Positions 35,349 through 49,524 of a stretch of 64,000 nt of DNA are shown here, one piece after another; the first letter of the stretch is position 1; each line of letters starts with the position of its first letter. Source of the DNA: Ostreococcus lucimarinus (Eukaryota); the NCBI GenBank assembly GCA_000092065.1, contig CP000583.1; one strand, 5' to 3'. Made by a program: the position numbers and the translations under genes. The notes under the pieces were generated by a model, which saw nothing but the letters and a program-made list of their open reading frames with translations, did no database searches and was not told the DNA's origin.

Positions 35349-37637
35349 CTATTTTGAAGGCTGGGGCCTCGTGAGCTCGTGCAAGAAGCGCCTCGCGAGC
35401 TCCTTCGCGTCCGATACCGCGGTGTGTCCTTCGGTGCGACGGTTGGCGCGCAAAACGTTGAGGCGTTGACAGGCGAAGCGCTTCGAGTCGCGAGCGACGC
35501 GAAGCGTCTCGACGTCGAGCGCGGCTCGACCGAGCACGGGGATCCAAAGGTCCGGGTTGTCACCTAACGCGATGATGGTCGATCGAATGGCGTCGATGGC
35601 GTTGTCGACGGTGAACGCATCGTCGGACGAACTTTCGCCATCGCGACGCGCGTCGCGAGCGAGGAGCGTTTCGAGCGCGGCGACGAAATCATCGATGAGT
35701 TTCTGACGAGTCGACTCGCCTCGTTCGCTCAACAAAAATTTGAGCGCGTCCTCCATCGCCACTTTCGTCGCTCGACGAGCCTCTTCTTCGCCATTTTCGG
35801 TCGCGCGCTCGCCCGACACGAGCTCGGTGATACCAACGACGGTTTTCTCGAGCGCTTGACGGAAATCAGATTTCGCCGTCGCGTCGGACGACGCCATCGG
35901 CGTCGTCTCGACACCGTACGCGCGAATGAGGCGTACTAAGCGCTTGTAACGAATGGATCCATCATCCGACAGCAATAATCTTCGCAGACTTTCTCGCATT
36001 TCGGGACTTCGATCGCTCAAAACTCGAGACAGTACGAAGGGATAACTCCTGTCCACGACGCGAAACGACGGGTCGATGGTCGTCGCCGTGCCTTCCAATG
36101 CCGCGAGCGCACGCAGAATGCGCGAAAAGTACGGCGGCAGTCTGAATCCATGTTTCATCAGTGCCGTGGATAACTGGGAGACGACGCCCATGAAATCGTT
36201 GCTGTTACGAACCTTGGTCGTGCTCTCGCCCGCGAAGACGGATCGCAGCGCCTCCTCCGCCGCCGCGCGGTCGACGTTTGGGGGGAGAAAATCCATGACT
36301 TTCAAGTCATCTACCAATCCCCGCGCGTCGCGATTGACGAACCCGATCAATCCGCGAACCATCGCTCGTCTGGTCTCGATCGGGACCTCCACCGTCATGC
36401 CGAAATCGAGATACGTCAAACCGCCGTTTTCGGCGACTAACAGGTTACCCGGATGCGGGTCGGTGTGCATGAATCCAGAACTCAGTAACTGATGGAGAGA
36501 CGCGCGCAAGCCTCGATCGAGGACTTCTTTCGGGGTGATCCCTCGCGATTGCATCAGCGACACGTCCGTCAAACGCAAGCCTTGCACCCACTCCATGGTC
36601 AGCACCGTGGGCGTGCTCAGAAAGTCGACGACGCGAGGCGCGTACACCAAACCCGCGAGTCCGACCCCGGCGTCGCCATTCGCGGCATACATCTCTCGAA
36701 ACCGCTCGCAACTCTCCGCCTCCTTGCTATAATCCATTTCCTCGAATATTCTCCCCACGAGCTCGTCCACGATGCCCACAACATCGCTCTTAAAGTTCCT
36801 CCACTTGCCGACGACGCCCACAAAGCGCCGCAAAATCACCGCGTCCAACGCCACGAGCTCGGCCAATCCCGGACGTTGAAGCTTAATCGCCACCTCGTGC
36901 CCCCCCGGAAGCGTCGCGCGGTACACTTGCGCGAGCGACGCCGCCGCCACGGGCGTTGGCTCAAACTTCTCGAAGAAATCAATCGAAATCCCGAGCTCGC
37001 GCTCGAGCGTCTCCAGACTCGTCGCCAAATCCGACGGCGGCAGCGCGTCCTGCAATTTCGCCAGCTCCTCCACGTACTCCACCGGAAACACGTCCGCGCG
37101 CGTCGACATCACCTGTCCCAATTTTATGTACGCCGGCCCGAGCCTCGTGAGCGTCTCCGTGAACGCTCGCGCGCGCCTTCTCCGCTCCCCCGCGCGCGCC
37201 GCGACGCCCAGCCCGATCGCCCCCAGCTCGTACCCCACCACCATCGCCCTCGCCAGCACCCGCAGCGGCCGTCTCGCGAACCACGCCTCGAACGCCTCGA
37301 CGTCGTACCGCAGCGCTCGTCGCCACGGCGCGCGCGCCTCCGTCGCCGTCGTCGTCCCCCGCGCGTCGTCGCCGCTCGTCGACGTCGTCCCGCCGTCCCG
37401 TCGCCGCGCCGCGCGCGCGTCGTCCACGAGCGCGCGCGCGCGCGCCAGCGCCGCCTCGCTCGCCCGCGCGCCGTCGTCGGCGCGCGCGCGCGCGCGTCTC
37501 GCGTCTCGCGCGCGCGCGCCGCCGTCGTCGTCGTCGTCGCGCGCCGTGCCACGCATCGCCGTCGTCATCGTTCGCGCGTCGCGCGCCGTCGCGCCGTTCC
37601 GCGCGAGCGCCGCGACGCGCCCGCGCGCGCGCATCAT
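35349..37637 (-). CDS. ABC1/ADCK (UbiB-family) atypical kinase, organelle-targeted
   Basis: 'LGPAYIKLGQVMSTRADVFP', 'AAASLAQVYRATLPGGHEVAIKLQRPG' and 'HTDPHPGNLLV...LTYLDFGM' are the ABC1 signature. R/A-rich N-terminal presequence. Confidence 0.85.
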   Translation of the reverse strand: MMRARGRVAALARNGATARDARTMTTAMRGTARDDDDDGGARARDARRARARADDGARASEAALARARALVDDARAARRRDGGTTSTSGDDARGTTTATEARAPWRRALRYDVEAFEAWFARRPLRVLARAMVVGYELGAIGLGVAARAGERRRRARAFTETLTRLGPAYIKLGQVMSTRADVFPVEYVEELAKLQDALPPSDLATSLETLERELGISIDFFEKFEPTPVAAASLAQVYRATLPGGHEVAIKLQRPGLAELVALDAVILRRFVGVVGKWRNFKSDVVGIVDELVGRIFEEMDYSKEAESCERFREMYAANGDAGVGLAGLVYAPRVVDFLSTPTVLTMEWVQGLRLTDVSLMQSRGITPKEVLDRGLRASLHQLLSSGFMHTDPHPGNLLVAENGGLTYLDFGMTVEVPIETRRAMVRGLIGFVNRDARGLVDDLKVMDFLPPNVDRAAAEEALRSVFAGESTTKVRNSNDFMGVVSQLSTALMKHGFRLPPYFSRILRALAALEGTATTIDPSFRVVDRSYPFVLSRVLSDRSPEMRESLRRLLLSDDGSIRYKRLVRLIRAYGVETTPMASSDATAKSDFRQALEKTVVGITELVSGERATENGEEEARRATKVAMEDALKFLLSERGESTRQKLIDDFVAALETLLARDARRDGESSSDDAFTVDNAIDAIRSTIIALGDNPDLWIPVLGRAALDVETLRVARDSKRFACQRLNVLRANRRTEGHTAVSDAKELARRFLHELTRPQPSK

Positions 37638-37701
37638 CGCGCGCGCCGTTTGTCACCCCTCGCGCGTCGCCGCGCCGGCCATCGTGAATGCGCGCGCGTC
37701 A

Positions 37702-38484
37702 ATGCGGGCCGTCCCGCGCGCCGTCCCGAACAATTCGCCGCACCGCGACGCCATGCGCGCGTCGCGCGCGCGTCGCGACGTCGCGATCGCGCCGTCGCGT
37801 CGCCGACGTCGCGCCGGCCATCGTCGCGCGACGGACGCCGACGGATTCTGGATCCCGGGGCCGTTCTTAAGACCCGAGGGATCGCCCGCGAGCGAGTCGT
37901 GCACCGGGCCGACGGTGTGGCGATTGATGCAGACGGAGCTCGCGGAGAGCGGACTCGAGCAGATCGCGCCGTCGCGCGCGCGCGCGATGGCGACGTCGAA
38001 CGGGTGGACGCTGCTCGACGTGCGACCGCGGAGCGATTATCGCGAGAGACACTGCTGGGGCGCGGCGAACGCGCAGTATTATCGAGCGATGGACGCGCGC
38101 GCGCCGGAAAATTGGGGAAAGGCGGCGCTGAGCGCGATGATGTTTCCGGAGCGCGTCGGGAAGGGGTATCTGAACGTGACGGAGAATGAGAATTTTATGG
38201 AGGAGGTGCTGGAGGCGGTGGAGTGGGGGTCGAAACTCATCGTGTACGACGACGCGGGGGGGGTGATCGGGGAGCCGGGAGTGAATTTCGAGAACGGCGT
38301 GCAGACGCCGAGCTTGATGGCGATCTACGAGCTCGCGGCGCGGGGGTGGGGGACGGAAAATTTATTGCACATGGCGGGGGGGCTCGTTTACTGGGACGAG
38401 GTCGACCGCTTCGACTGCGGGGAGATCGACGCGAGCGCGCTCGAAGAGGAGGCGCGAGCCGACGGCGCGAGCGAGGGCTGGTGA
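37702..38484 (+). CDS. Rhodanese-domain protein with transit-peptide-like N-terminus
   Basis: 'WTLLDVRPRSDYRERHCWGAANA' rhodanese fold. ATG at 37702 lies only 64 bp from the divergent ABC1K start. Confidence 0.65.
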   Translation: MRAVPRAVPNNSPHRDAMRASRARRDVAIAPSRRRRRAGHRRATDADGFWIPGPFLRPEGSPASESCTGPTVWRLMQTELAESGLEQIAPSRARAMATSNGWTLLDVRPRSDYRERHCWGAANAQYYRAMDARAPENWGKAALSAMMFPERVGKGYLNVTENENFMEEVLEAVEWGSKLIVYDDAGGVIGEPGVNFENGVQTPSLMAIYELAARGWGTENLLHMAGGLVYWDEVDRFDCGEIDASALEEEARADGASEGW

Positions 38485-38566: not shown

Positions 38567-39439
38567 TCACCATCCCGACTGCTTGAGCGTCTCGTAAACG
38601 CCAAAGGAAATCGCGGAACCGGGCGCGACCGCGGCGACGCGCGCGCCCGCGCCCGCGAACAATCCACGCGCGCCTTCGCGCTTAAACACGTCTCGTAACA
38701 CCTCACGCAACGACGCCGACGTCGTCGTCTCGAACCGCATCGTCTGCAAGCGCGTCTTGGCCAAATCGAGCGGGTGCGTGAGCGTCGTCGCCGCCGTCGC
38801 CGCCGCCGTCGCGCTCACCGCGCTCACCATCGGCGACGCCTCACCACCGCTCGACTCCAACGCAACGCGCGATCGTTCGTATATCGCAAAGTACGCCGCC
38901 GACCACGGCCACCACACGAAATTCTGCGCCCAGTATCCCCGAAACAGTCCCCGCGCGCCCTCCTCTCGCGCGATGACGCGCGCCGCGTCCACCCAATGTC
39001 TATACCGTCCCATCCTCGCGCGTTCGCCCAGCACGTCTTGCGTCTGCAATCTTTCCTTTATCACGTCCATCGGCGTGTACACCACTCCCGCGAGCGCTTG
39101 CGCCCACATCCCCGTCGCCGCGCTCGCGCTCGCGCTCGTCCCGAACCATCGCGTCCCGCTCTCGTACCCGACGAAGTACGCCCCGCTCGCGAGCGGCGCG
39201 AGCGCCGCGACGGCGCCGAATCCTTTATATAATCCCACCGCGCGCGTTCGTCCGCCCTCGGCGCGCGCGACGGCGCCGCGCGCGCCTCGGACTTGCGCGC
39301 GCGCCTTGAGCGTGTCCATGGGGTGCGTCAAGAAACGCGCCGCGAGCCCGCTGACGGCGCCGCGCGCGCCGTCGGCGAGGACGCCGTCGAGCGCGGACGC
39401 CGCGGCGGGGTCCGCGCCGCGCGCGCGGGCGCTCGACAT
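38567..39439 (-). CDS. Mitochondrial carrier family (SLC25) transporter
   Basis: Three carrier repeats with 'PMDTLKARAQ', 'PMDVIKERLQT' and 'HPLDLAKTRLQT'. Confidence 0.8.
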   Translation of the reverse strand: MSSARARGADPAAASALDGVLADGARGAVSGLAARFLTHPMDTLKARAQVRGARGAVARAEGGRTRAVGLYKGFGAVAALAPLASGAYFVGYESGTRWFGTSASASAATGMWAQALAGVVYTPMDVIKERLQTQDVLGERARMGRYRHWVDAARVIAREEGARGLFRGYWAQNFVWWPWSAAYFAIYERSRVALESSGGEASPMVSAVSATAAATAATTLTHPLDLAKTRLQTMRFETTTSASLREVLRDVFKREGARGLFAGAGARVAAVAPGSAISFGVYETLKQSGW

Positions 39440-39635
39440 GCGGCGAGCGACGCGCGCCGCGTCCGCGTGTGACGCGTGTGTTGTGTGATAAATACACACA
39501 TCGGTGCTTTTTCGATTAAATACGTAAAGTAGGGTTTACGTGGTGCGTCGACGTCGATGCGTCGCGCGCTTATCCGGCGCGCGCCGCAGACGACGACGCG
39601 CGCGCGCCACGCGAGCGGCGCGCGACGCGGCGCAC

Positions 39636-42600
39636 ATGACGCCCGCATCGCGCGATGCGCGCGCGAGCCCGCGCGGTGCGGCGCGCGCGACGCGAGCGCC
39701 GCGAATGCGCGCGCGGCGCGGCGACGTCGCATCGTCCCGAGGACGACGACCGCGCGCGCCGCGCCCGCGCGCGAGCGTCGACGAAGAGCGCTCCGAGCGC
39801 GCGGACAGCGCCGACGGTGCGTCGACGAGCGCGAGGCGGCCGACGATGGAGCTGCAGATGACGCCCGCGAGCGGGGCCCCGTTCGGGGGGTCCAGGGTGG
39901 TGGACTTTGTCGCGGCGTGGGACGCGATATCGCCGCGATTGGCGGCGCGCGAACACGGAGAGGCGGACAAGGAGATGCTGCTGAGCGCGTTGACGCTCGC
40001 CATACCGCGGCTGCAGCAGATCGTGCGAACGGAAGGGAAAGGAAAGAAGCCGGCGCACGAGCGAGCGGTGGACGTGACGCTCACGCTCGTGGACATGGGG
40101 ATGGACGCGGAATGCATCTCCGCGGGATTGCTTCGAGAGGCCGTGGTGCACGGGACGGTGAGTTTGGATGAGATAGAGGACGTGCTCGGGGAGCGGGTGA
40201 TGCGGTTGGCGCACGATGTGGGGCGAGTGCACGATTTACCGAGACGAGTGCACTCGTACGACGAAAACGCGGCGGAACGCTTGCGGTCGTTTTACCTGTC
40301 GTTTCACGACATAAGAGCGATCGTGGTGGAGTTGGCGTGCAGACTTGATACTTTGAGAAACATCGATGAGCTTGAGCCGATCCAGCGGACGACGATTGCG
40401 TTGGAGACGATGCAGATTTACGCCCCCATGGCGCACGCGTTGAACACGGGCGCCCTTTGCGCAGAGTTGGAAGATTTAGCGTTTAAGATTTTGTTTCCGA
40501 CGTCTTACGCCTCGCTGGAGAGGTGGCTGACGGCAAAAAGTCCAGGGGACTCGGCCATCTTGGATAAGATGACAAAGATGCTCACGGATACGATGAACGC
40601 CGACACGACGATGAACGCGTTGATCGGCCGCGGAGGGGTCAAGGTTTTGGCGAGAAGGAAATCTCGTTACTCCACCATGAAGAAGATCATTCGCGATGGG
40701 CGAAAGCGTGAAGAGGTGCACGATTTGCTCGGACTACGCCTCGTTTTGACCCCGCAACCTGGGAGTGGGGCGGAATTGCCCGGCATGGGTCAGGTGTATT
40801 CGGGTGAGGTTACGTACGAGCACATGGAGGCGAGAGCGTTAAAAGCGGCGAACGCGGCGTGCTATCGCGCACAGCAAATAGTGCACGGTTTATTTCCAGC
40901 CGTAAGCGGACGAACCAAGGACTACATCAGTGATCCCAAGGCGAACGGATACTCGTCCTTGCACAGCACTCTCAAGGTCGCGTTTGGCGACGACGGCAAA
41001 CCTTTGGCGTCGAGCGAAGCGTACAAACGCGGCGTGAATGTCGAGATGCAGATCCGAACGGCAGCCATGCATCTCGCCGCTGAAGCGGGCACTGCGTCGC
41101 ACAATTCGTATAAGGGTGGCTTGAAGGAAGACACGGGTATGGCGGGCTCGCTCGCGGACTTGGCCTCGGCAGCGAATCGCGCCGCGGAGGAAAAGTTTGG
41201 CGCTTTCACGCACGCCGATTTGCGCGAACGCGACGAACTCCACGACAGATTGTTCGAAGCATTCGATCTTGATGGTGATGGTCGCGTCACGATGAGTGAG
41301 CTGCGTACGGTACTGGAGAAAATATGGGACACGGAGATGAACGATTTGCGCGAGGAAGCTCACGCGTTGATGGAGCTCCTCGACGTTAACCAGGATGGTA
41401 CTATCGACGCTGATGAATTTGCAAAGTTCCGCGCGTCGCTCACCGCGATTAGTGCGCTACCTAAAGCGGATGCGGCGACCTTGGCGGCGATTGAAGCCGT
41501 TGCGATTGACGTTGAGATCGCCGAAGACGCGCCGGCGGCGCAAGTCGAGGACAAAGCTTTGGTGATTGACGTCAACCCCACGGAGGTGCCCACGGGTGAA
41601 AATATCGAAGAGAAGGCCGAATTGATAGCCACCGTGCGCGCGAAGGTACGAGCCGCGGTATCTGAGAGCTACGAGTACACCGGTAAAGTAGATTTAGCCG
41701 GGCGCAAGGCAACTGCGGCGATGCGCGATTCCGAGTCGGGTCCGGTGGAATGGCAACTGGTGTGGGATTTGATGCGAACTGGTCGAGCCGAGACAGCGCG
41801 TCAACTGTTTTACCAGCGTACTACGCGAGCGCCGAGTCAGATTCTTGTATGGGAGCAGTGGGCACGTTTTGAGCTTCTTCAAGGAGACCCCGAACGCGCG
41901 CGAAGCCTCTACCGCGCTGCATTGTTGCACTGCGAAGATCAGCCCATGGTGCGGGCCGAAATTTTGCGAAAATGGGCCATGATGGAGATAGTATCCACCG
42001 ATGCGCTGCACCAAACGTCTCATTCTGATTTGTTTTCTCGCACGATTGCGGTGCTGGCAGAGGCTCAGAGCAAAGGGCGCATCACTGCCGAGGAGTCTGG
42101 CTCAGCGCAAGCGAAGACGTACCAAGTTTGGGCGCAGGGGCTCGCTCGTGCGGGGAACATCGACGAAGCGAGAAAACTTTTGGATAAGGCTATCGATCTG
42201 GACGAAAACAATGCAGCCGTTGCGCACGCTCAAGGGCAAATCGAGGAAACGCTCGATAACTTCCCGGCAGCCATCGCCGCGTATCGTCGGGGTCTCGAAG
42301 CGAACCCGAACGACGCCTACTTGCTTCAGTCGTGGGGTCGAATCGAGGCGAAGATGGGTCGTTTGGACAACGCTCGAAAGCTGTTTAGACACGGCGTCGA
42401 AACAAACGAGGAAAATTACCACATTCCCCAGGCTTGGGCGGTGAGTGAGGCGGAGCATCCAGAAGGCGACGCGGCGACGGCGCGTGAAATGTTTCAACGC
42501 GCGAGCTCACTCGCGTACTGGTCCGTCCAAACCTGGGCTGCTTGGGCGCGCTTTGAACTGGACGCGGAAGATAACGAGCAAAGGCTTGAAACTGCGCGCA

Positions 42601-43175
42601 CGCTGTATGAACGCGGTCTCGATGCCGAACCCGGGAACTTGGTGTGTCTCGTCGGCCTCGCAAAGTGCGAGAGTCGACTCGGTCGCTTTGGCGCCGCCCG
42701 CGAAACGCTTCGCCGAGCGAACGCCATCCATCCCGATTCCTCAGCTCTGTGCTTCGCCCAAGCCAGACTCGAAGAAGCCGCGGGCGCGCCCGCGAAAGCC
42801 GCCCACCTCTACCAAAAAGCTCGCCAACTCCAAAAAGAAAGCCGCAAGAAAAAGTCGCGCGTCTCGACGCGCGGTCGCGGTTCCCGCTCCACCTGGGACC
42901 CCGTCGAAGCGTTCGAACGCCAAGAAATCGCATCGGCATCCATCATCTACGCCACCACCGACGACAACCACTTCGCCCACATGGACGAACAAGACGCCAA
43001 CGGCTTTTCCGAGGACGAAAAGCGTCGCTCGAGCGACGATTTGGGCAGTTACGAGCCCCCTCGCTCGTACGAGCGTCGCCGCGTTCGCAAGACGCGCCGC
43101 GCGCCCTCGACGCGCGTCGCCCCGCGCGCCGCCGACGACGACGACGTCCTCGGCAGTAGCCTCGACTCCCTTTAA
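39636..43175 (+). CDS. RelA/SpoT homolog (ppGpp synthetase, degenerate HD hydrolase) with two EF-hands (CRSH-like) fused to a C-terminal HAT/TPR repeat domain
   Basis: Synthetase motifs 'RRKSRYSTMKKI', 'DLLGLRLVL', 'GYSSLHSTL' and 'EMQIRTAAMH'. HD region has 'LLREAVVHGT' where LLHDVVEDT is expected (HD lost). EF-hands 'DLDGDGRVTMSEL' and 'DVNQDGTIDADEF'. About 8 HAT-like repeats ('WEQWARFELLQGDPERARSLYRAAL', 'WAAWARFELDAEDNEQRLETARTLYERGL'). Transit-peptide-like N-terminus. Confidence 0.8.
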   Translation: MTPASRDARASPRGAARATRAPRMRARRGDVASSRGRRPRAPRPRASVDEERSERADSADGASTSARRPTMELQMTPASGAPFGGSRVVDFVAAWDAISPRLAAREHGEADKEMLLSALTLAIPRLQQIVRTEGKGKKPAHERAVDVTLTLVDMGMDAECISAGLLREAVVHGTVSLDEIEDVLGERVMRLAHDVGRVHDLPRRVHSYDENAAERLRSFYLSFHDIRAIVVELACRLDTLRNIDELEPIQRTTIALETMQIYAPMAHALNTGALCAELEDLAFKILFPTSYASLERWLTAKSPGDSAILDKMTKMLTDTMNADTTMNALIGRGGVKVLARRKSRYSTMKKIIRDGRKREEVHDLLGLRLVLTPQPGSGAELPGMGQVYSGEVTYEHMEARALKAANAACYRAQQIVHGLFPAVSGRTKDYISDPKANGYSSLHSTLKVAFGDDGKPLASSEAYKRGVNVEMQIRTAAMHLAAEAGTASHNSYKGGLKEDTGMAGSLADLASAANRAAEEKFGAFTHADLRERDELHDRLFEAFDLDGDGRVTMSELRTVLEKIWDTEMNDLREEAHALMELLDVNQDGTIDADEFAKFRASLTAISALPKADAATLAAIEAVAIDVEIAEDAPAAQVEDKALVIDVNPTEVPTGENIEEKAELIATVRAKVRAAVSESYEYTGKVDLAGRKATAAMRDSESGPVEWQLVWDLMRTGRAETARQLFYQRTTRAPSQILVWEQWARFELLQGDPERARSLYRAALLHCEDQPMVRAEILRKWAMMEIVSTDALHQTSHSDLFSRTIAVLAEAQSKGRITAEESGSAQAKTYQVWAQGLARAGNIDEARKLLDKAIDLDENNAAVAHAQGQIEETLDNFPAAIAAYRRGLEANPNDAYLLQSWGRIEAKMGRLDNARKLFRHGVETNEENYHIPQAWAVSEAEHPEGDAATAREMFQRASSLAYWSVQTWAAWARFELDAEDNEQRLETARTLYERGLDAEPGNLVCLVGLAKCESRLGRFGAARETLRRANAIHPDSSALCFAQARLEEAAGAPAKAAHLYQKARQLQKESRKKKSRVSTRGRGSRSTWDPVEAFERQEIASASIIYATTDDNHFAHMDEQDANGFSEDEKRRSSDDLGSYEPPRSYERRRVRKTRRAPSTRVAPRAADDDDVLGSSLDSL

Positions 43176-43844
43176 CGGCGCGCGCACCTTTTCTCGCCCG
43201 CCATCCGTCCTTCGCGCGACCTCGGACCCGCGCCTCGCCTCGCGGCGCGTCGACGAAGAAACGACGAATGGCGTCGCGCGCGGCGTCCACGCGCGCCGAC
43301 GCGCGACCGCCCGCCCGACCCCGGGATCGCCGCGAAATCCTCGCGCGCGCGCGCGCGCGCGTCGCTCGAATCACGACTCGTCGAGTCCCTCTTTTTTTCC
43401 CAGCCCGTCGATACTGTTTGCGCGGCCGACGCCCGGCCGCGACGGCCCCCCGCGACGTCCCGCGGCGGTTTCGGGCGCGCTGGCGTGTGTAAAACGACCG
43501 ATCGTGACTCAAGCGCCGTTTACGTATTGCGCGCGCATTTCGCCAATGTATCGCGAACGCGACGCGCGCGTCGTCTCCGGGCGGTCGGTCGCCCGCCCCG
43601 CGCGACGCGCGCGAGCCGCGACGTCGACGCGCGCGCGGCAGTCGCCCGCGCGCGCGACCGCGCGAGCGCGCGCGAACGCGCGAACCGCGCGCGCGCGACC
43701 GACGGGCGAGGGAATCGACGCGCGCGCGACGATCTCGGCGACGGATCGAAGACGCGATCGATCGATCGAAGATATTTCCGCGGGCAGCGCTGGCGGAAAC
43801 GGCGCGCGCGACGCGCGCGAGGGCGAGGACGCGCGCGAGACGGG

Positions 43845-44684
43845 ATGCCGTCGATGACGCGGAGTCGAACGGACTCGCCGAACGCGATCGCGGCGATCGC
43901 GGTGGACGTCGCGGTGCGAGCGCTGGGAGGGAGGCGGGCGACGGAGGCGGGGACGGCGAGCGACGAGGCGAGCGAGGTGGTCGACGCGTTGTTGCCCAGG
44001 GTGACGCGGTTGAGCGTGCGAAAGCGATTGTCGGGGCGGGGGGGGAAGAGTGATAGAGAGGGACGGGTGGGGGCAGACGAGATGGGGTTCGACGCGATGG
44101 ATGCGGATACGTTGTTCGGGGAAAGATCCACGGAGGGGTCGCTTCGCGGAGGCACGGCGATGTTTCACGAACGAAAAAACTCGTTCGATGGGGAAATTAA
44201 ATTTGAATCGGCGTTGCCGACGGCGTCGGACGATGCGGTGATTCCGACCGAGGAGGGTGGGCGGCGACCGCCGACGCCGGGTAAGACTCGCCCTTGGTTG
44301 AAGGAATCGCGAGCGACTCCGATGCAAGTCGACGACGAGCGAGCGAAGACTTGCGGCGACGCCGTGCCCAGTATTTTGGCTTCGCCGAAGAGAAACGGAT
44401 CCATGCTGATCCTGAATGCGGAAGATCACGATACAAAGATGCGCTGCGTGGGAACGCCGACGTTGGTGCCGCGCGCGCGTCGCGCCGAAGTCAATTCCCC
44501 GACGTTGGTTGGGGTCGAATCGCCGTCGGCGGGTACGCCCTCCGAACAATCCATCGAGACGTCTGACCACAAGCCGTTCAGTCGTAGCGCATCCACGCTG
44601 TCGACGGTATCTCTCGCCTCGGCGTTCAGCCCGGTCTCTCGACCGATGTCGAGGAATGCATCCCAAGAAGACCTCAGTAAATGA
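43845..44684 (+). CDS. Hypothetical Ser/Thr-rich protein
   Basis: ORF with protein-like composition from M 'MPSMTRS'. No family recognised. The upstream part of the track ORF is Arg-rich junk. Confidence 0.35.
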   Translation: MPSMTRSRTDSPNAIAAIAVDVAVRALGGRRATEAGTASDEASEVVDALLPRVTRLSVRKRLSGRGGKSDREGRVGADEMGFDAMDADTLFGERSTEGSLRGGTAMFHERKNSFDGEIKFESALPTASDDAVIPTEEGGRRPPTPGKTRPWLKESRATPMQVDDERAKTCGDAVPSILASPKRNGSMLILNAEDHDTKMRCVGTPTLVPRARRAEVNSPTLVGVESPSAGTPSEQSIETSDHKPFSRSASTLSTVSLASAFSPVSRPMSRNASQEDLSK

Positions 44685-44843: not shown

Positions 44844-46760
44844 CTACAAAAGTAAAACCTTGGAGGCGGGAGAGGCGCGCAAACCGGAGAACCGGACATG
44901 CCCGCGACGCGCTTGCTGTTGCGGGACGCCACGCACCGCGCGCGCCTTGACACGAACACCACGCTCCCGAACACCCGTCATAGTCGCAGAGATAGTCGCG
45001 GCTGTCCCATCCTTCTTCACATCAAACTTATCCGCCGCGACGTGCACGTTCTTCACCGCCCGGCCAGAAATATCCCCGACGCTCTTCTCCCACTCAGGAT
45101 CCCAGCACACGGCTTCCGGAGTGGAACACGCGATAGATTTGCCAAATGGGCACGTCGCATACGCGCAGTCACCATTCTCAAATCCAGTCACAAAGTGCTC
45201 CTCGAAAATGGAGCGGAGCAAGTAATACTCCTTCGTCGTCGGCGGATGCAGCGGGAAGCGTTGGGCGCGTCTCGCAAAGTCTTCATCCGACACTTCGAGC
45301 TCGGCATGCGCCGCCAAACCGTCGACCCAGTCGTAGCCGACGCCGTCGCTAAATTGTTCTTTTTGTCGCCAAAGCACTTCTTGCGGCAAGTAGGAATCTC
45401 CAGGGGTGTCGAACGCCTTGCGAAGGATGTACTTTTCCAAGTACGGACGCCCATCCGCATCCTTCTTGTTGACATCAATCATCTTGTCCTCCGGTCGCAT
45501 GTTCATCGCGAGATCGATGACTTGCTGAGACAAGAGCGGAGTGCGCACCTCAATGCCCCAACTCATAGTTGATTTGTTCGCGCGCAAAACGTCCCATTGG
45601 TGCAATCGCATGGTCTTCCGACGGCACTCGGCGTGGAATTCAGCCGGGTTCGGCGCCTTGTGAAAATACAAGTATCCGCCGAAGAGCTCATCCGCGCCCT
45701 CGCCCGACAGCACCATCTTGAATCCCAGTGACTTGATATGACGGCTCAAAAGATACATTGGCACCGACGCCCGAACTTGTTCGAACGTTTCCAGATGCCA
45801 AATGACATCCGGAAGCGCGTCCAAGGCTTCCTCAGGCGTGAAATGCACCTCGTGGTGAATCGTTCCGAGTTGCTCGGCAACCTTGCGAGCGGCGACTAAA
45901 TCTGGTGCCCCCTTGATACCGATGGAAAACGAGTGCACGGGTTCGTCCGCACCGTACGTGTTCTTCGCTAACTTACGCTGACGCACAGCGATGGAAGTGA
46001 TCAACGAAGAGTCGAGGCCTCCAGAGAGGAGCACGGCGTACGGGACGTCCGCCATCAAACGCTTGGTGACGGCGTCGACGACGCACTCACGGAGCTCCTC
46101 CAAGTTTGCCTCCTTGGTCGGCACGTAATTTTCATCCGTAATCCACTGCGGGTTGTACCAGCGCTCGATCGTCGCCGGCGCGTCCCCCTTCTTGACGTAC
46201 ACGTGACCAGGGGGGAAGATTTCATAATTCGCCACCCCCGGGTCGTCGTGAAGTGTCTTCATCTCGCTGCTAAACCACACGCTCCCATCCTTCCCGTTCG
46301 CCATATACATCGGAATCTTACCCATGTGATCTCTCGCCGCCACGATCACATCGTTCTCGCGATCCTCAATCACGAACGCGAACATTCCGTCGAGCTCGCT
46401 CACAAAGCTCGGCCCGTGCTGCTCGTACAGGTGCCCGATGACTTGACAATCGCTCTTATTCTCGCTCACGATTCCATACTTTTCCCTCAATTCCGCGTGA
46501 TTATAAATCTCCCCGTTCGCGATGAACGCCGTCCTCTTCGTCGCGTCCGTGAACAGCGGTTGATCGCCGCTCTTTCCCGGCGCCACGATGCTCAGGCGCT
46601 TGTGCACCATGAAGGTTTGTCGTCCCGCGTCGTCCAATCGCACCTCCATCCCGTACGAATCCGGTCCTCGGTGTCGCAGCCGCTTCGCGAGCTGATACAC
46701 GCGCTGCCGATTCTTGCGCGCGTCGCCCGTGAGGCGCAGGACGCTGAAGATCCCGCACAT
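44844..46760 (-). CDS. ASN: Asparagine synthetase (glutamine-hydrolysing)
   Basis: N-terminal 'MCGIFSV' (Cys2 nucleophile). 'YAVLLSGGLDSS' PP-loop. C-terminal 'ACSTPEAVCWDPEWEK'. About 55 extra C-terminal residues of uncertain reality. Confidence 0.9.
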   Translation of the reverse strand: MCGIFSVLRLTGDARKNRQRVYQLAKRLRHRGPDSYGMEVRLDDAGRQTFMVHKRLSIVAPGKSGDQPLFTDATKRTAFIANGEIYNHAELREKYGIVSENKSDCQVIGHLYEQHGPSFVSELDGMFAFVIEDRENDVIVAARDHMGKIPMYMANGKDGSVWFSSEMKTLHDDPGVANYEIFPPGHVYVKKGDAPATIERWYNPQWITDENYVPTKEANLEELRECVVDAVTKRLMADVPYAVLLSGGLDSSLITSIAVRQRKLAKNTYGADEPVHSFSIGIKGAPDLVAARKVAEQLGTIHHEVHFTPEEALDALPDVIWHLETFEQVRASVPMYLLSRHIKSLGFKMVLSGEGADELFGGYLYFHKAPNPAEFHAECRRKTMRLHQWDVLRANKSTMSWGIEVRTPLLSQQVIDLAMNMRPEDKMIDVNKKDADGRPYLEKYILRKAFDTPGDSYLPQEVLWRQKEQFSDGVGYDWVDGLAAHAELEVSDEDFARRAQRFPLHPPTTKEYYLLRSIFEEHFVTGFENGDCAYATCPFGKSIACSTPEAVCWDPEWEKSVGDISGRAVKNVHVAADKFDVKKDGTAATISATMTGVRERGVRVKARAVRGVPQQQARRGHVRFSGLRASPASKVLLL

Positions 46761-47122
46761 GATCGTCCGCGCGCGTTCGACGCGCGGCAAAGCCCTGAAC
46801 GCTGGAACCCTCGAGTCGGGCGCGCGCGCCGGCGGACGCGCGCGCGACGCCGCGAGGCCGCGAGGCGAGGCGCGCGACGGGTGCGCGCGCGGTCGAACGA
46901 CGCGAGCGCGGCGGACGCGGCGCGCGGTGGACGCGACGCGACGGCGTGTGCGCGCGAGACGACGCGAGCGCGCGCATTATCCGACCGAGCCGCCGCCGAT
47001 CGATGGGCGACCGACCGCCGTGTGGGCAAACAGTGACGTGTGGGGGGGATTCGGGATGGATCGCGCGCGAGCGAGACGCGGCGAGGCGACGCGACGACGG
47101 CGCGCGCGAGAAAAGTGCGTCG

Positions 47123-48241
47123 TTAACAACGAACGAGAATTTTTAAACGGCCGATCGAGGCCGAGGGGTCGAGGTCGGCGGCGGCGTCGAGGCGAAGGGC
47201 CTCGGGAAGACCGCGCAGGGGGACGTCGCGGAGACGGGACGAGGGCGTGCGGAGCGCGCCGTCGTGAATCTCTCGCGAGATTTGGGCGAGCATGTCGCGG
47301 CGACCGGCGCCTTGAGTGGTGTTTTCGTCGTGCTCGAGCCAGCGGGTGAGCCAGAAGCCTTTGAGGGTGATGTCTTTGAAGATGAAGGCGCCGGTGGGAA
47401 CGACGAGCGGTTGCTTGGACATGCCGCCGTAGGTAACCATGACGGACGATGCGTTCGGCTGAAGCAGTCTAAGCATGGTTTGCGCGCTATATCCACTCAC
47501 GGCGTTAAACCCAAACCGCGCCCTCGTCGCGAGTTCGCGCGTTTTCGCGTCGAGTCGGAGGAATTTACCCTCGACGTCTGGTATCACGACGTCGGCGCCG
47601 TCGGCGCGCAACGATTCAAAAACCTCCTCCGTCGCCGTCTCGCTCGATCTCGGCCGACACATAGCTATCGTTCTAATACCCCTCGCGCGTGCGAGCTGCA
47701 ATAACGCCCGTCCAACCCCCGAAGTCGCGGCGTTCACGACGATCGTATCCCCCTCTCGCGCGTCGTTATCGACCAACAGCCGCAGCGCCGTGCACGGATT
47801 CACCGTCATCATCGCCGCCTCGTGCACGGGCACGTCCCGATCGATCACATCAAACGCGTTCGCGTTCGCCACCACCTCTCGTCGCCACGTTCCCAGCGCG
47901 TACGATCGATTCGGCACCACTCTGTCGCCCGTTCGCGCGCCCCTCGCCAGCGCCCTCGTCCCGCACGCCGTCACCTCCCCCACCATCTCGTTCCCTCCGC
48001 ACGCCGGCAGCTCGCGCGCGACCGGGTACTTACCCTCGATCATGTTCACGTCCGACGGGTTCACCGGCGCGGCGAGGACGCGCACGCGCACGTCGTCCTC
48101 GCCCAGTTCGTCCGGCAACGGTATCGACGCCACGCGCAGGACCTCCCCCGGCGCGCCGCGCTCGGCGTACACGCACGCCTCCGTGTGCGCGCGTCGACGC
48201 GCGATGACGTCGCGGATCGCGCGCGGCGCGCGTCGGCGCAT
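47123..48241 (-). CDS. Mitochondrial trans-2-enoyl-CoA reductase (MECR/ETR1-like, MDR superfamily)
   Basis: 'VLAAPVNPSDVNMIEGKYP', 'GDTIVVNAATSGVGRALLQLARARG' and 'TYGGMSKQPLVVP'. Start at M 'MRRRAPRAIRDV'. The Pro-rich upstream part of the ORF is not coding. Confidence 0.8.
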   Translation of the reverse strand: MRRRAPRAIRDVIARRRAHTEACVYAERGAPGEVLRVASIPLPDELGEDDVRVRVLAAPVNPSDVNMIEGKYPVARELPACGGNEMVGEVTACGTRALARGARTGDRVVPNRSYALGTWRREVVANANAFDVIDRDVPVHEAAMMTVNPCTALRLLVDNDAREGDTIVVNAATSGVGRALLQLARARGIRTIAMCRPRSSETATEEVFESLRADGADVVIPDVEGKFLRLDAKTRELATRARFGFNAVSGYSAQTMLRLLQPNASSVMVTYGGMSKQPLVVPTGAFIFKDITLKGFWLTRWLEHDENTTQGAGRRDMLAQISREIHDGALRTPSSRLRDVPLRGLPEALRLDAAADLDPSASIGRLKILVRC

Positions 48242-48324
48242 CGCGCGTCGAGCGCGACGCGATGCGGCGTCAGAGCGCGACGCCGCGAATCGATCCGCGC
48301 GCGCGTCGATGCGAGTCGACGCGA

Positions 48325-49524
48325 ATGGACGGTGAGAGCGCCGCGACGACGTGCGGGGCGTGCGAGAAAGCGCGCGCGAGGTACGCGTGTCCGAAGTGCG
48401 GCGCGAGGCTGTGCGCGCTGGCGTGCTACGAGCGACACAACGATGGGAAGTGTCAAAGTCGATTTCACGAGGACGCGCTCGCGAGCGCGATGCGAGGGAT
48501 GACGGCGACGGCGGAGACGAAGCGGGAGATGATGGAGACTTTGCGGCGACGCGCGGTGGCGGACGGGACGCTGGATCTCGGGATCGAGGAGGAGGAGGAG
48601 GAGGAGGAGGGCGACGACGACGACGACGGCGGCGAGCGGTGCGTGCTGAGCGAGGCGAGCTTGGAGGTACTGCGCGCGGGGGGAGAGTTGGATTTAGAAG
48701 CGTTGAATGAGGAAGAACGGGCGAGTTTTGAGCGGGCGGTCGCGAGCGGGGAGCTCGTGGAGGCGTGGGTGCCGTGGTGGGAATCGCCCGAGGCTGGACG
48801 AACGCGCGCGAGCGCGAGGGGCGAGCGCGCGGTGGCGGAGCTCGATCTGTGTGAACCGACGACGAGCGAGGGCGCGAACGACAAAGATAAAGGCATACCA
48901 CCGCTCGCGAGCGCGGATGAAGCTTTGGATCCGTTTGAGAGGTTGAGCGGGGGTAAAGAAGCCCCCGAAGCGCTTCGCTGGCACTGCGTCAACGCGCTCT
49001 CGGCGTACGTCCTCGTCAAGCGATCTTTCAACGGAGATTGGAGCGATGAAGAGGAAATCGCGTGCGACGCGATGTTAGAACTATCCGCTGTGCTCAGCGC
49101 CGAGCGCGGTGCGATCGCGGAGGCCCAGTGCGCGCGAGACGCCGCGCTCGACGTCGTCCGCCGCGCGCCGCGCGCGCTCCCCTCCCCCCCCTCCCCTCGC
49201 GCTCTCCAGCGCGCGCTCACCGCCGACCTCCGCGCCCTGTTCGCCGCCCCAACCATCCCCATTCGAGCCCTGCTCGACCTCTCTCGCGCTCTCGACGTCG
49301 CCGCGCGCGCGTCGGCGTCCGACCGCGCGCGACGCCGCCGCGCCGCGCTCAAGTCCCGCTACCTCTGCGCCTACCTCTGCGCCGACGCCCTCGGCGTCGT
49401 CACCGCCGACGTCGCGCGCGCCGTGAAAGAAATCATCGACGACGACCTCGACGTCGACCCCGACGTCGACCTCGACGTCGTCCGCGTCCGCGACGGCGTC
49501 GCGTCGCCCCGCGCGCGCGGGTAG
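48325..49524 (+). CDS. HIT-type zinc-finger (ZNHIT) protein with acidic stretch
   Basis: 'CGACEKARARYACPKCGARLCALACYERHNDGKC' zf-HIT signature. poly-E/D tract. Divergent from MECR with 83 bp between start codons. Confidence 0.65.
   Translation: MDGESAATTCGACEKARARYACPKCGARLCALACYERHNDGKCQSRFHEDALASAMRGMTATAETKREMMETLRRRAVADGTLDLGIEEEEEEEEGDDDDDGGERCVLSEASLEVLRAGGELDLEALNEEERASFERAVASGELVEAWVPWWESPEAGRTRASARGERAVAELDLCEPTTSEGANDKDKGIPPLASADEALDPFERLSGGKEAPEALRWHCVNALSAYVLVKRSFNGDWSDEEEIACDAMLELSAVLSAERGAIAEAQCARDAALDVVRRAPRALPSPPSPRALQRALTADLRALFAAPTIPIRALLDLSRALDVAARASASDRARRRRAALKSRYLCAYLCADALGVVTADVARAVKEIIDDDLDVDPDVDLDVVRVRDGVASPRARG

Follow-up and report, generated by a model that had tools for sequence, protein, structure and literature searches.

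The 64,000-nucleotide stretch of Ostreococcus lucimarinus DNA analyzed here (assembly GCA_000092065.1, contig CP000583.1; the window) very probably carries, on the plus strand at 39636-43175, one intron-less nuclear gene for an RSH4/CRSH-type (p)ppGpp synthetase that is predicted to be hydrolase-dead and synthetase-competent and that ends in a tail of HAT-type TPR repeats. The encoded parts follow each other as a disordered basic N-terminus, a degenerate HD domain, an intact RelA/SpoT domain, two EF-hands, a linker, ten helix hairpins and a disordered tail (Table 1). The finding itself adds little, because the RSH4-TPR architecture is already known from published work. New here are the corrected gene model, the ancient collinear fusion and the similarity of the tail to HAT proteins of the Mbb1/HCF107 type.

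An open reading frame scan of the window detected an uninterrupted stop-free frame at 39540-43175. An in-frame TAA is located at 39525-39527 within an AT-rich stretch, and the next ATG downstream is that at 39636. The original prediction, made without database searches, had described a single uninterrupted frame, and this was confirmed with 1179 amino acids plus stop. The codon-position GC content was of the coding type (GC3 > GC2) from around codon 40 onward through the rest of the frame, with no break in the linker.

Four protein parts had been proposed, and they are real, since Pfam searches of the translated frame detected HD_4, RelA_SpoT, an EF-hand pair and TPR/HAT repeats. The proposed order, with the synthetase ahead of the HD domain, was incorrect: HD_4 (residues 119-270) precedes RelA_SpoT (residues 340-494). 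The N-terminal half also matched the NCBIfam spoT_relA subfamily TIGR00691 (3e-57) and solved Rel/RelA structures (1e-46 to 1e-22), while the EF region matched calmodulin.

The catalytic motifs were compared with those of the bifunctional Oceanithermus Rel, Neisseria SpoT and Arabidopsis CRSH, using sequences from the supplement of PMC6881373. In the HD domain, LLREAVVHGT (residues 165-174) stands in place of the HD and ED catalytic pairs. Relative to Oceanithermus Rel and Neisseria SpoT the active site is degenerate, with HD replaced by RE, ED by VH and D..N by C..T, and Arabidopsis CRSH displayed parallel losses. The synthetase motifs were all present as RRKSRYSTMKK, DLLGLR, GRTKDYISDPKANGYSSLH and EMQIRTAAMHLAAEAG, and the corresponding patterns RxKxxxSxxxK, DxxGxR, GRxKDYIxxPKxNGYxSLH and ExQIRTxxMHxxAExG were invariant in 33 orthologs. 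The EF-hand pair (residues 534-598; Pfam EF-hand_7, EF-hand_1, EF-hand_5 and EF-hand_6) has two canonical loops, DLDGDGRVTMSE and DVNQDGTIDADE, which align with the EF-hands of Arabidopsis CRSH; D544, G549 and E555 were invariant in the 33 orthologs. The pair stands C-terminally, where TGS/ACT would be, and neither a TGS nor an ACT domain was detected in Pfam and NCBIfam searches of the protein. The motifs indicate a dead hydrolase and a competent synthetase. A complete synthetase, a replaced His-Asp pair, two canonical EF-hands and a CRSH-like enzyme had all been anticipated by the original prediction, and each agreed with the profiles and alignments. BLASTP against Arabidopsis CRSH gave 35% identity over residues 84-599 (518 aligned positions, E = 7e-95).

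Two extra surface segments were observed in the Ostreococcus synthetase domain relative to Arabidopsis CRSH and bacterial Rel. The first covers residues 377-401 (40764-40838), occurs in a shorter form in Micromonas-like orthologs and is absent from those of Bathycoccus, Mesostigma and chlorophytes. The second, at about residues 447-467 (about 40974-41036), reads KVAFGDDGKPLASSEAYKRGV.

The public protein XP_001416591.1 of O. lucimarinus CCE9901 was placed in the green RSH4 clade together with O. tauri OUS43685.1 in published IQ-TREE trees (Avilan et al., 2019, PMC6881373). The clade placement used here is that of these trees. Table S2 of the same paper gives TPR for the RSH4 of O. tauri, Klebsormidium and Marchantia and "FHA, TPR" for Chlorella, while the Chlamydomonas, Volvox, moss and vascular-plant entries have no TPR. 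A passage of that paper credits the C-terminal TPR on green-algal RSH4 to Ito et al. (2017). O. lucimarinus RSH4 is scored there without TPR and without a chloroplast signal, because the public model is truncated. According to a 2022 review (PMC10107265), domain acquisition is frequent in algal RSH4, and CRSH combines a dead hydrolase with a synthetase that is activated by Ca2+.

The RefSeq protein XP_001416591.1 corresponds to the same frame read from MELQM (39846) to ...DADEFAKFR (41432), minus 40765-40836. It therefore has neither the N-terminal 70 residues nor anything after EF-hand 2. The true start lies upstream of the RefSeq Met: the block "ASVDE...STS" upstream of MELQM is kept in orthologs, and the Met of MELQM is not conserved. 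The first 70 residues are basic (net charge +11, isoelectric point (pI) 12), disordered (predicted local distance difference test (pLDDT) <35 in the full-length AlphaFold2 model) and poorly conserved overall, which is compatible with a putative transit peptide. The segment 40765-40836 most likely encodes a lineage-specific loop and the start of a helix of the synthetase domain and is not an intron. Orthologs from Ostreococcus and the Micromonas-like group conserve it, all their indels there preserving the frame, and it is kept in O. tauri OUS43685.1. By these comparisons the RefSeq model lacks both ends of the protein and splices out a segment that is no intron. The public models of this O. 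lucimarinus gene should be joined and lengthened into one that starts at 39636, has no intron and stops at 43175.

The linker between the EF-hands and the repeats was conserved in close orthologs (0.4-0.75). It contains predicted helices at residues 608-624 and 657-697 that flank a disordered stretch. The blocks KFRASLTAISALPKADAxTLAAIEAVA, VIDV, VPTG and ELIATVRxAVxxSYEYTGKVDxAGRKAxxAMRD recur in seven close orthologs of the Ostreococcus clade, which also keep the 40765-40836 segment and the block upstream of MELQM, and all length differences among these seven were in frame. By our own estimate, a linker of 105 codons would be stop-free by chance with p = 0.05 or so at about 62% GC. The continuity is significant because the amino acids are conserved and the indels in orthologs always keep the frame, and not by the absence of stops alone. 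These results are in agreement with the earlier description of a protein-like linker within one gene.

A homolog search with the whole protein found about 90 proteins combining HD_4, RelA_SpoT, EF-hand and TPR. They included eight Ostreococcus-clade clusters (68-75% identity), proteins of about 1450-1600 amino acids taken as Micromonas-like, and NCBI-annotated proteins of Bathycoccus prasinos, Mesostigma viride and Myrmecia bisecta; the four-part architecture also recurred in Tetraselmis. The O. mediterraneus protein A0A7S0KP80 (UniRef, 1175 amino acids) has all four domain types and aligned in a single high-scoring segment pair (HSP) over query residues 13-1097 with 68% identity. It is probably transcript-derived, because accessions of this series are linked to MMETSP transcripts. 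An MMETSP transcript labelled "type:complete" (P0384, 1503 amino acids) carries HD_4, RelA_SpoT, FHA and TPR on one mRNA. The fusion is old, being common to prasinophytes, core chlorophytes (with an additional FHA) and early streptophytes. This age, together with the collinearity across green algae, suggests that the tail has a function which has been conserved. In core-chlorophyte RSH4 (P0384, P0263 and P0088) an FHA phosphopeptide-binding domain separates the EF-hand region from the TPR; the RSH4 of Mamiellophyceae and Mesostigma have no FHA domain.

Pfam placed the TPR/HAT region at about residues 707-1079, with TPR_14 at 1.9e-25 and strong hits to TPR_2 and TPR_19. HAT_PRP39_C scored 36 bits against a cut-off of 33; HAT_Syf1_C, HAT_PRP39_N and Suf stayed under their cut-offs. 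The AlphaFold2 model of the repeat module, calculated from a 12-sequence alignment, displayed 21 helices with a pLDDT of 89.5 and a predicted template modelling score (pTM) of 0.79. Repeats of the TPR/HAT type, as originally predicted, are present; their number, given as about eight, was corrected to ten hairpins at residues 706-1075. By our own count a Trp is present in helix A of six of the ten repeats (W710, W739, W780, W832, W900 and the W934/W967 region). Helix B has AR in most repeats, and the pattern AR..F/Y..R..L in many. The best natural sequence matches in the PDB were the spliceosomal HAT proteins Clf1, cwf4 and CRNKL1 (1e-16 to 1e-10), followed by Prp6, Syf1 and Rrp5. Behind the repeats, the protein ends in GSSLDSL (43149-43172), and a GSSLD unit is repeated three to four times near the C-termini of Micromonas-like orthologs (P0104-P0106 and P0011).

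Relatives of the repeat region outside the RSH family were selected from an exhaustive profile search. It returned about 458,000 TPR proteins, of which mid-sized matches were chosen and named; rank alone was uninformative, because giant multi-TPR proteins sum scores over many stretches. A word-indexed homolog search with the repeat region alone gave only 16 matches, with known orthologs absent, because TPR words are so common that they fill up the list of candidates. The top 150 of the profile search included a protein named in UniRef "PsbB mRNA maturation factor Mbb1, chloroplastic" (P0191) and green-algal proteins of 659-690 amino acids from Bryopsis, Tetraselmis and Chlorokybus. A profile built from the Mbb1-like set recovered a second Mbb1-named protein (Cyanidium) and angiosperm proteins of 618-648 amino acids. 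The repeat core of the angiosperm protein P0274 we take to be Arabidopsis HCF107-like. The Mbb1/HCF107-like set consists of proteins named Mbb1 automatically in UniRef and of plant proteins taken as HCF107-like, and not of curated entries.

In BLASTP against five RSH4 repeat modules, the best HSP of Mbb1/HCF107-like proteins reached 46-145 bits, compared with 33-65 bits for a Clf1-like protein and 27-51 bits for OGT, PrsT and other TPR proteins. With hhalign, the RSH4 repeat profile matched the Mbb1/HCF107-like set collinearly over 326 columns (7e-56, score 423); the controls were a nuclear-type HAT set (4e-21, score 167) and a bacterial PrsT-type TPR set (1e-24, score 196). The Mbb1/HCF107-like proteins thus appear to be the nearest non-RSH family of the repeat module. 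The earlier description of the repeats as HCF107/Mbb1-like is supported as similarity, because the BLASTP and profile-profile rankings agree. The RSH4 module is not an Mbb1/HCF107 ortholog, since it matched Mbb1-like proteins in several shifted registers, whereas RSH4 modules align mutually end to end in one HSP (32% over 381 amino acids between the query and Mesostigma).

One exception in the BLASTP comparison was P0217, a bacterial-TPR-annotated protein from an Ardenticatenia metagenome-assembled genome, which nearly equalled the Mbb1-like proteins against the RSH4 tail. It shares 37% identity over 316 amino acids with an Mbb1-named red-algal protein. Two explanations are at hand, bacterial relatives of the Mbb1/HCF107 HAT family or contamination of the metagenome-assembled genome. 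The idea that RSH4-TPR substitutes for a missing stand-alone Mbb1 in Mamiellophyceae was unsupported, as four Ala/Arg-rich stand-alone HAT proteins (P0276-P0279) matched the Mbb1-like profile at about 1e-46 to 1e-56. These four proteins may belong to marine Mamiellophyceae.

By analogy with the RSH4/CRSH family (PMC10107265), the enzyme would be located in the plastid; it would be imported there via its basic N-terminal extension. Stromal Ca2+ bound to both EF-hands would then switch on (p)ppGpp synthesis, as shown biochemically for plant CRSH; a dark-induced rise in stromal Ca2+ may be one trigger (PMC10107265). From its anatomy, the HAT-type TPR solenoid on its flexible linker would most likely serve as a platform for docking or regulation, positioning or gating the synthetase via a partner. 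This partner could be protein or RNA, and RNA is a real possibility because the closest relatives are the chloroplast RNA-binding Mbb1/HCF107.

Several points weigh against the interpretation of the locus as a Ca2+-gated synthetase with a HAT-type tail. The generic models TPR_14, TPR_2 and TPR_19 outscored the HAT models in Pfam. The predicted fold is a generic TPR superhelix, with OGT, SPINDLY, TTC7B and Prp6 as nearest structures (TM score about 0.5); further top matches were a cross-exon pre-B spliceosome chain, Pol II elongation-complex chains, APC/C and TOM70. In O. lucimarinus the repeat module is close to neutral (net charge -1, pI 6.9). The full-length AlphaFold2 model has confident domains and low-confidence stretches at residues 1-84, 486-535, 623-657 and 1074-1179, and it displayed no confident inter-domain contact (pTM 0.42), so that it gives no structural hint of the tail gating the enzyme. 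An autoinhibitory docking read from this model was dropped, there being no usable inter-domain geometry at that pTM. Ca2+ activation and enzyme activity are deduced from motifs and homology only. No O. lucimarinus cDNA was found among the matches, the 100%-identical contigs being Tara Oceans metagenome DNA.

Within the one-gene interpretation, there is close to an even chance that the tail plays no part in RNA binding and is a TPR scaffold of the ordinary kind for contacts between proteins, its HAT resemblance reflecting ancestry only. Such a scaffold might serve oligomerisation, chaperone or import contacts, or phospho-regulated partner recruitment. The top fold matches, among them OGT, SPINDLY, TTC7B, APC/C and TOM70, are protein-binding TPR superhelices, and the Pfam ranking and the near-neutral module point the same way. 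So does the FHA domain beside the TPR in core-chlorophyte orthologs, which is typical of protein signalling scaffolds, and spliceosomal HAT proteins are mainly protein scaffolds. However, the nearest family by sequence and profile is Mbb1/HCF107-like, direct binding of RNA is described for HCF107 (Hammani 2012, as cited in PMC8635915), and most RSH4 repeat modules are basic. A pI of 9-10 was found for the modules of O. tauri-like, Bathycoccus, Mesostigma and chlorophyte RSH4 as well as for Mbb1/HCF107-like proteins; being neutral here and basic in relatives, net charge is an equivocal indicator of RNA binding.

That the tail is an RNA- or ribosome-binding HAT array, tethering Ca-gated (p)ppGpp synthesis to plastid transcripts or ribosomes, seems rather doubtful. 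Functionally it would stand in for the C-terminal TGS/ACT region with which bacterial RelA/Rel bind the ribosome, and it is consistent with the missing TGS/ACT hits, the collinear match to the Mbb1/HCF107-like family, the Trp and AR signature in most repeats and the basic modules of most orthologs. The near-neutral module of O. lucimarinus itself and the FHA neighbour in other lineages, which points to protein partners, argue against it. We know of no residue-level RNA-recognition code for HAT repeats. In the literature searched, no paper was found that links Mbb1/HCF107 HAT proteins to the RSH4 tail or ppGpp enzymes to HCF107 or HAT. In a bolder form, which we hold to be unlikely, the RNA-binding HAT array would derive from the Mbb1/HCF107 lineage and would have been recruited at the base of green plants, so that RSH4 makes (p)ppGpp on plastid mRNAs or ribosomes upon a Ca2+ rise, with loss of the array in the TPR-less lineages. 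If true, eukaryotes would have invented anew the principle of a RelA tethered to the ribosome.

It is highly improbable that the locus holds two adjacent genes, an RSH-EF gene ending at about 41432 and a separate TPR gene from Met771 (41946) joined by an accidentally open frame: the RefSeq end, a separate 409-residue public model (P0102, which starts MVRAEILRKW at Met771, runs to the stop at 43175 and was among the 16 word-indexed matches) and the chance of about 5% for an open linker favour it, but Met771 falls inside repeat 3 of the ten-repeat solenoid, so that P0102 would lack repeats 1-2, and the conserved linker with in-frame indels only, the unbroken codon-position GC and the fusion in many lineages, independent eukaryotic annotations and transcript-derived proteins all oppose it.

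The gene thus interpreted as single is flanked by the genes listed in Table 1. The open reading frames 37126-38484 and 43485-44684, both on the plus strand, had no Pfam match. A Tara Oceans metagenome contig (L001) has the gene in the same setting, with the carrier (called with 290 amino acids), the asparagine synthase and the ADH-like gene around it in unchanged order.

Table 1. Features of the RSH4/CRSH-TPR locus and neighbouring genes in the window
Feature	Position	Strand	Evidence or remark
RSH4/CRSH-TPR, complete coding sequence	39636..43175	+	1179 amino acids plus stop, no intron required; full-length orthologs
N-terminal extension, residues 1-70, putative chloroplast transit peptide	39636..39845	+	Basic, Arg/Ala/Ser-rich, predicted disordered
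Pseudo-hydrolase HD_4, residues 119-270	39990..40445	+	Pfam 8.6e-26; alignment to Rel, SpoT and Arabidopsis CRSH
(p)ppGpp synthetase RelA_SpoT, residues 340-494	40653..41117	+	Pfam 2.6e-25; motif alignment
72-nt in-frame GT..AG segment spliced out in RefSeq model	40765..40836	+	RefSeq protein compared with reading frame
EF-hand loops D544-E555 (41265-41300) and D583-E594 (41382-41417)	41265..41417	+	Pfam EF-hand hits, alignment with Arabidopsis CRSH
Acidic conserved linker, residues 600-705	41433..41750	+	Ortholog conservation, helix prediction
Ten HAT-type TPR helix hairpins, superhelix, residues 706-1075	41751..42860	+	AlphaFold2, repeat dissection, Pfam
C-terminal tail, residues 1076-1179, poorly conserved, disordered	42861..43172	+	Low conservation, pLDDT <50
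Intergenic region, AT-rich, shared with divergent mitochondrial-carrier gene; presumed promoter and 5' untranslated region	39440..39635	.	Sequence reading, Mito_carr assignment
ABC1 kinase-like	35349-37637	-	
Mitochondrial carrier, divergent from RSH4 across ~196 bp of AT-rich DNA	38567-39499	-	Mito_carr
Asparagine synthase	44844-46790	-	
ADH-like	47123-48901	-	

Both photosynthesis and the expression of chloroplast genes are under the control of (p)ppGpp, yet to our knowledge it is poorly understood what sets the place and time of RSH action in plants and algae. The affinity of the tail to the Mbb1/HCF107 RNA-maturation family provides a concrete, testable idea of its function, and Ostreococcus, being transformable and having a tiny genome, is a reasonable system for testing it.

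Among known systems, the closest are the green-algal and other green RSH4-TPR proteins, namely O. tauri OUS43685.1, Klebsormidium nitens GAQ91082.1, Marchantia Mapoly0002s0095.1 and Chlorella variabilis XP_005851775.1, which are alike in family and domain order. O. tauri OUS43685.1 is collinear with the O. lucimarinus protein through the insertion loop, EF-hands, linker, repeats and tail. There is no essential difference from this group; only the truncated public model of O. lucimarinus differs. Arabidopsis CRSH (OAP03147.1) shares the degenerate hydrolase, the intact synthetase and two C-terminal EF-hands, but it ends about 50 residues past EF-hand 2 and has no TPR, so that the O. lucimarinus protein exceeds it by the two extra synthetase loops and about 580 residues of linker, repeats and tail. 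The stand-alone Mbb1 of Chlamydomonas and HCF107 of Arabidopsis display about ten HAT-type repeats with the same W..WA..E / AR..F..R..L pattern; they differ in having about 600-700 amino acids without an enzyme domain and 24-30% identity to the RSH4 tail. The bacterial long RSH proteins (RelA/Rel/SpoT) are alike in their homologous HD and synthetase half and in the division into a catalytic N-terminal and a regulatory C-terminal half. Their C-terminal half consists of TGS, helical, ZFD and ACT domains and binds ribosome and tRNA, whereas the O. lucimarinus protein has EF-hands and HAT-TPR repeats in this position together with a hydrolase that appears dead.

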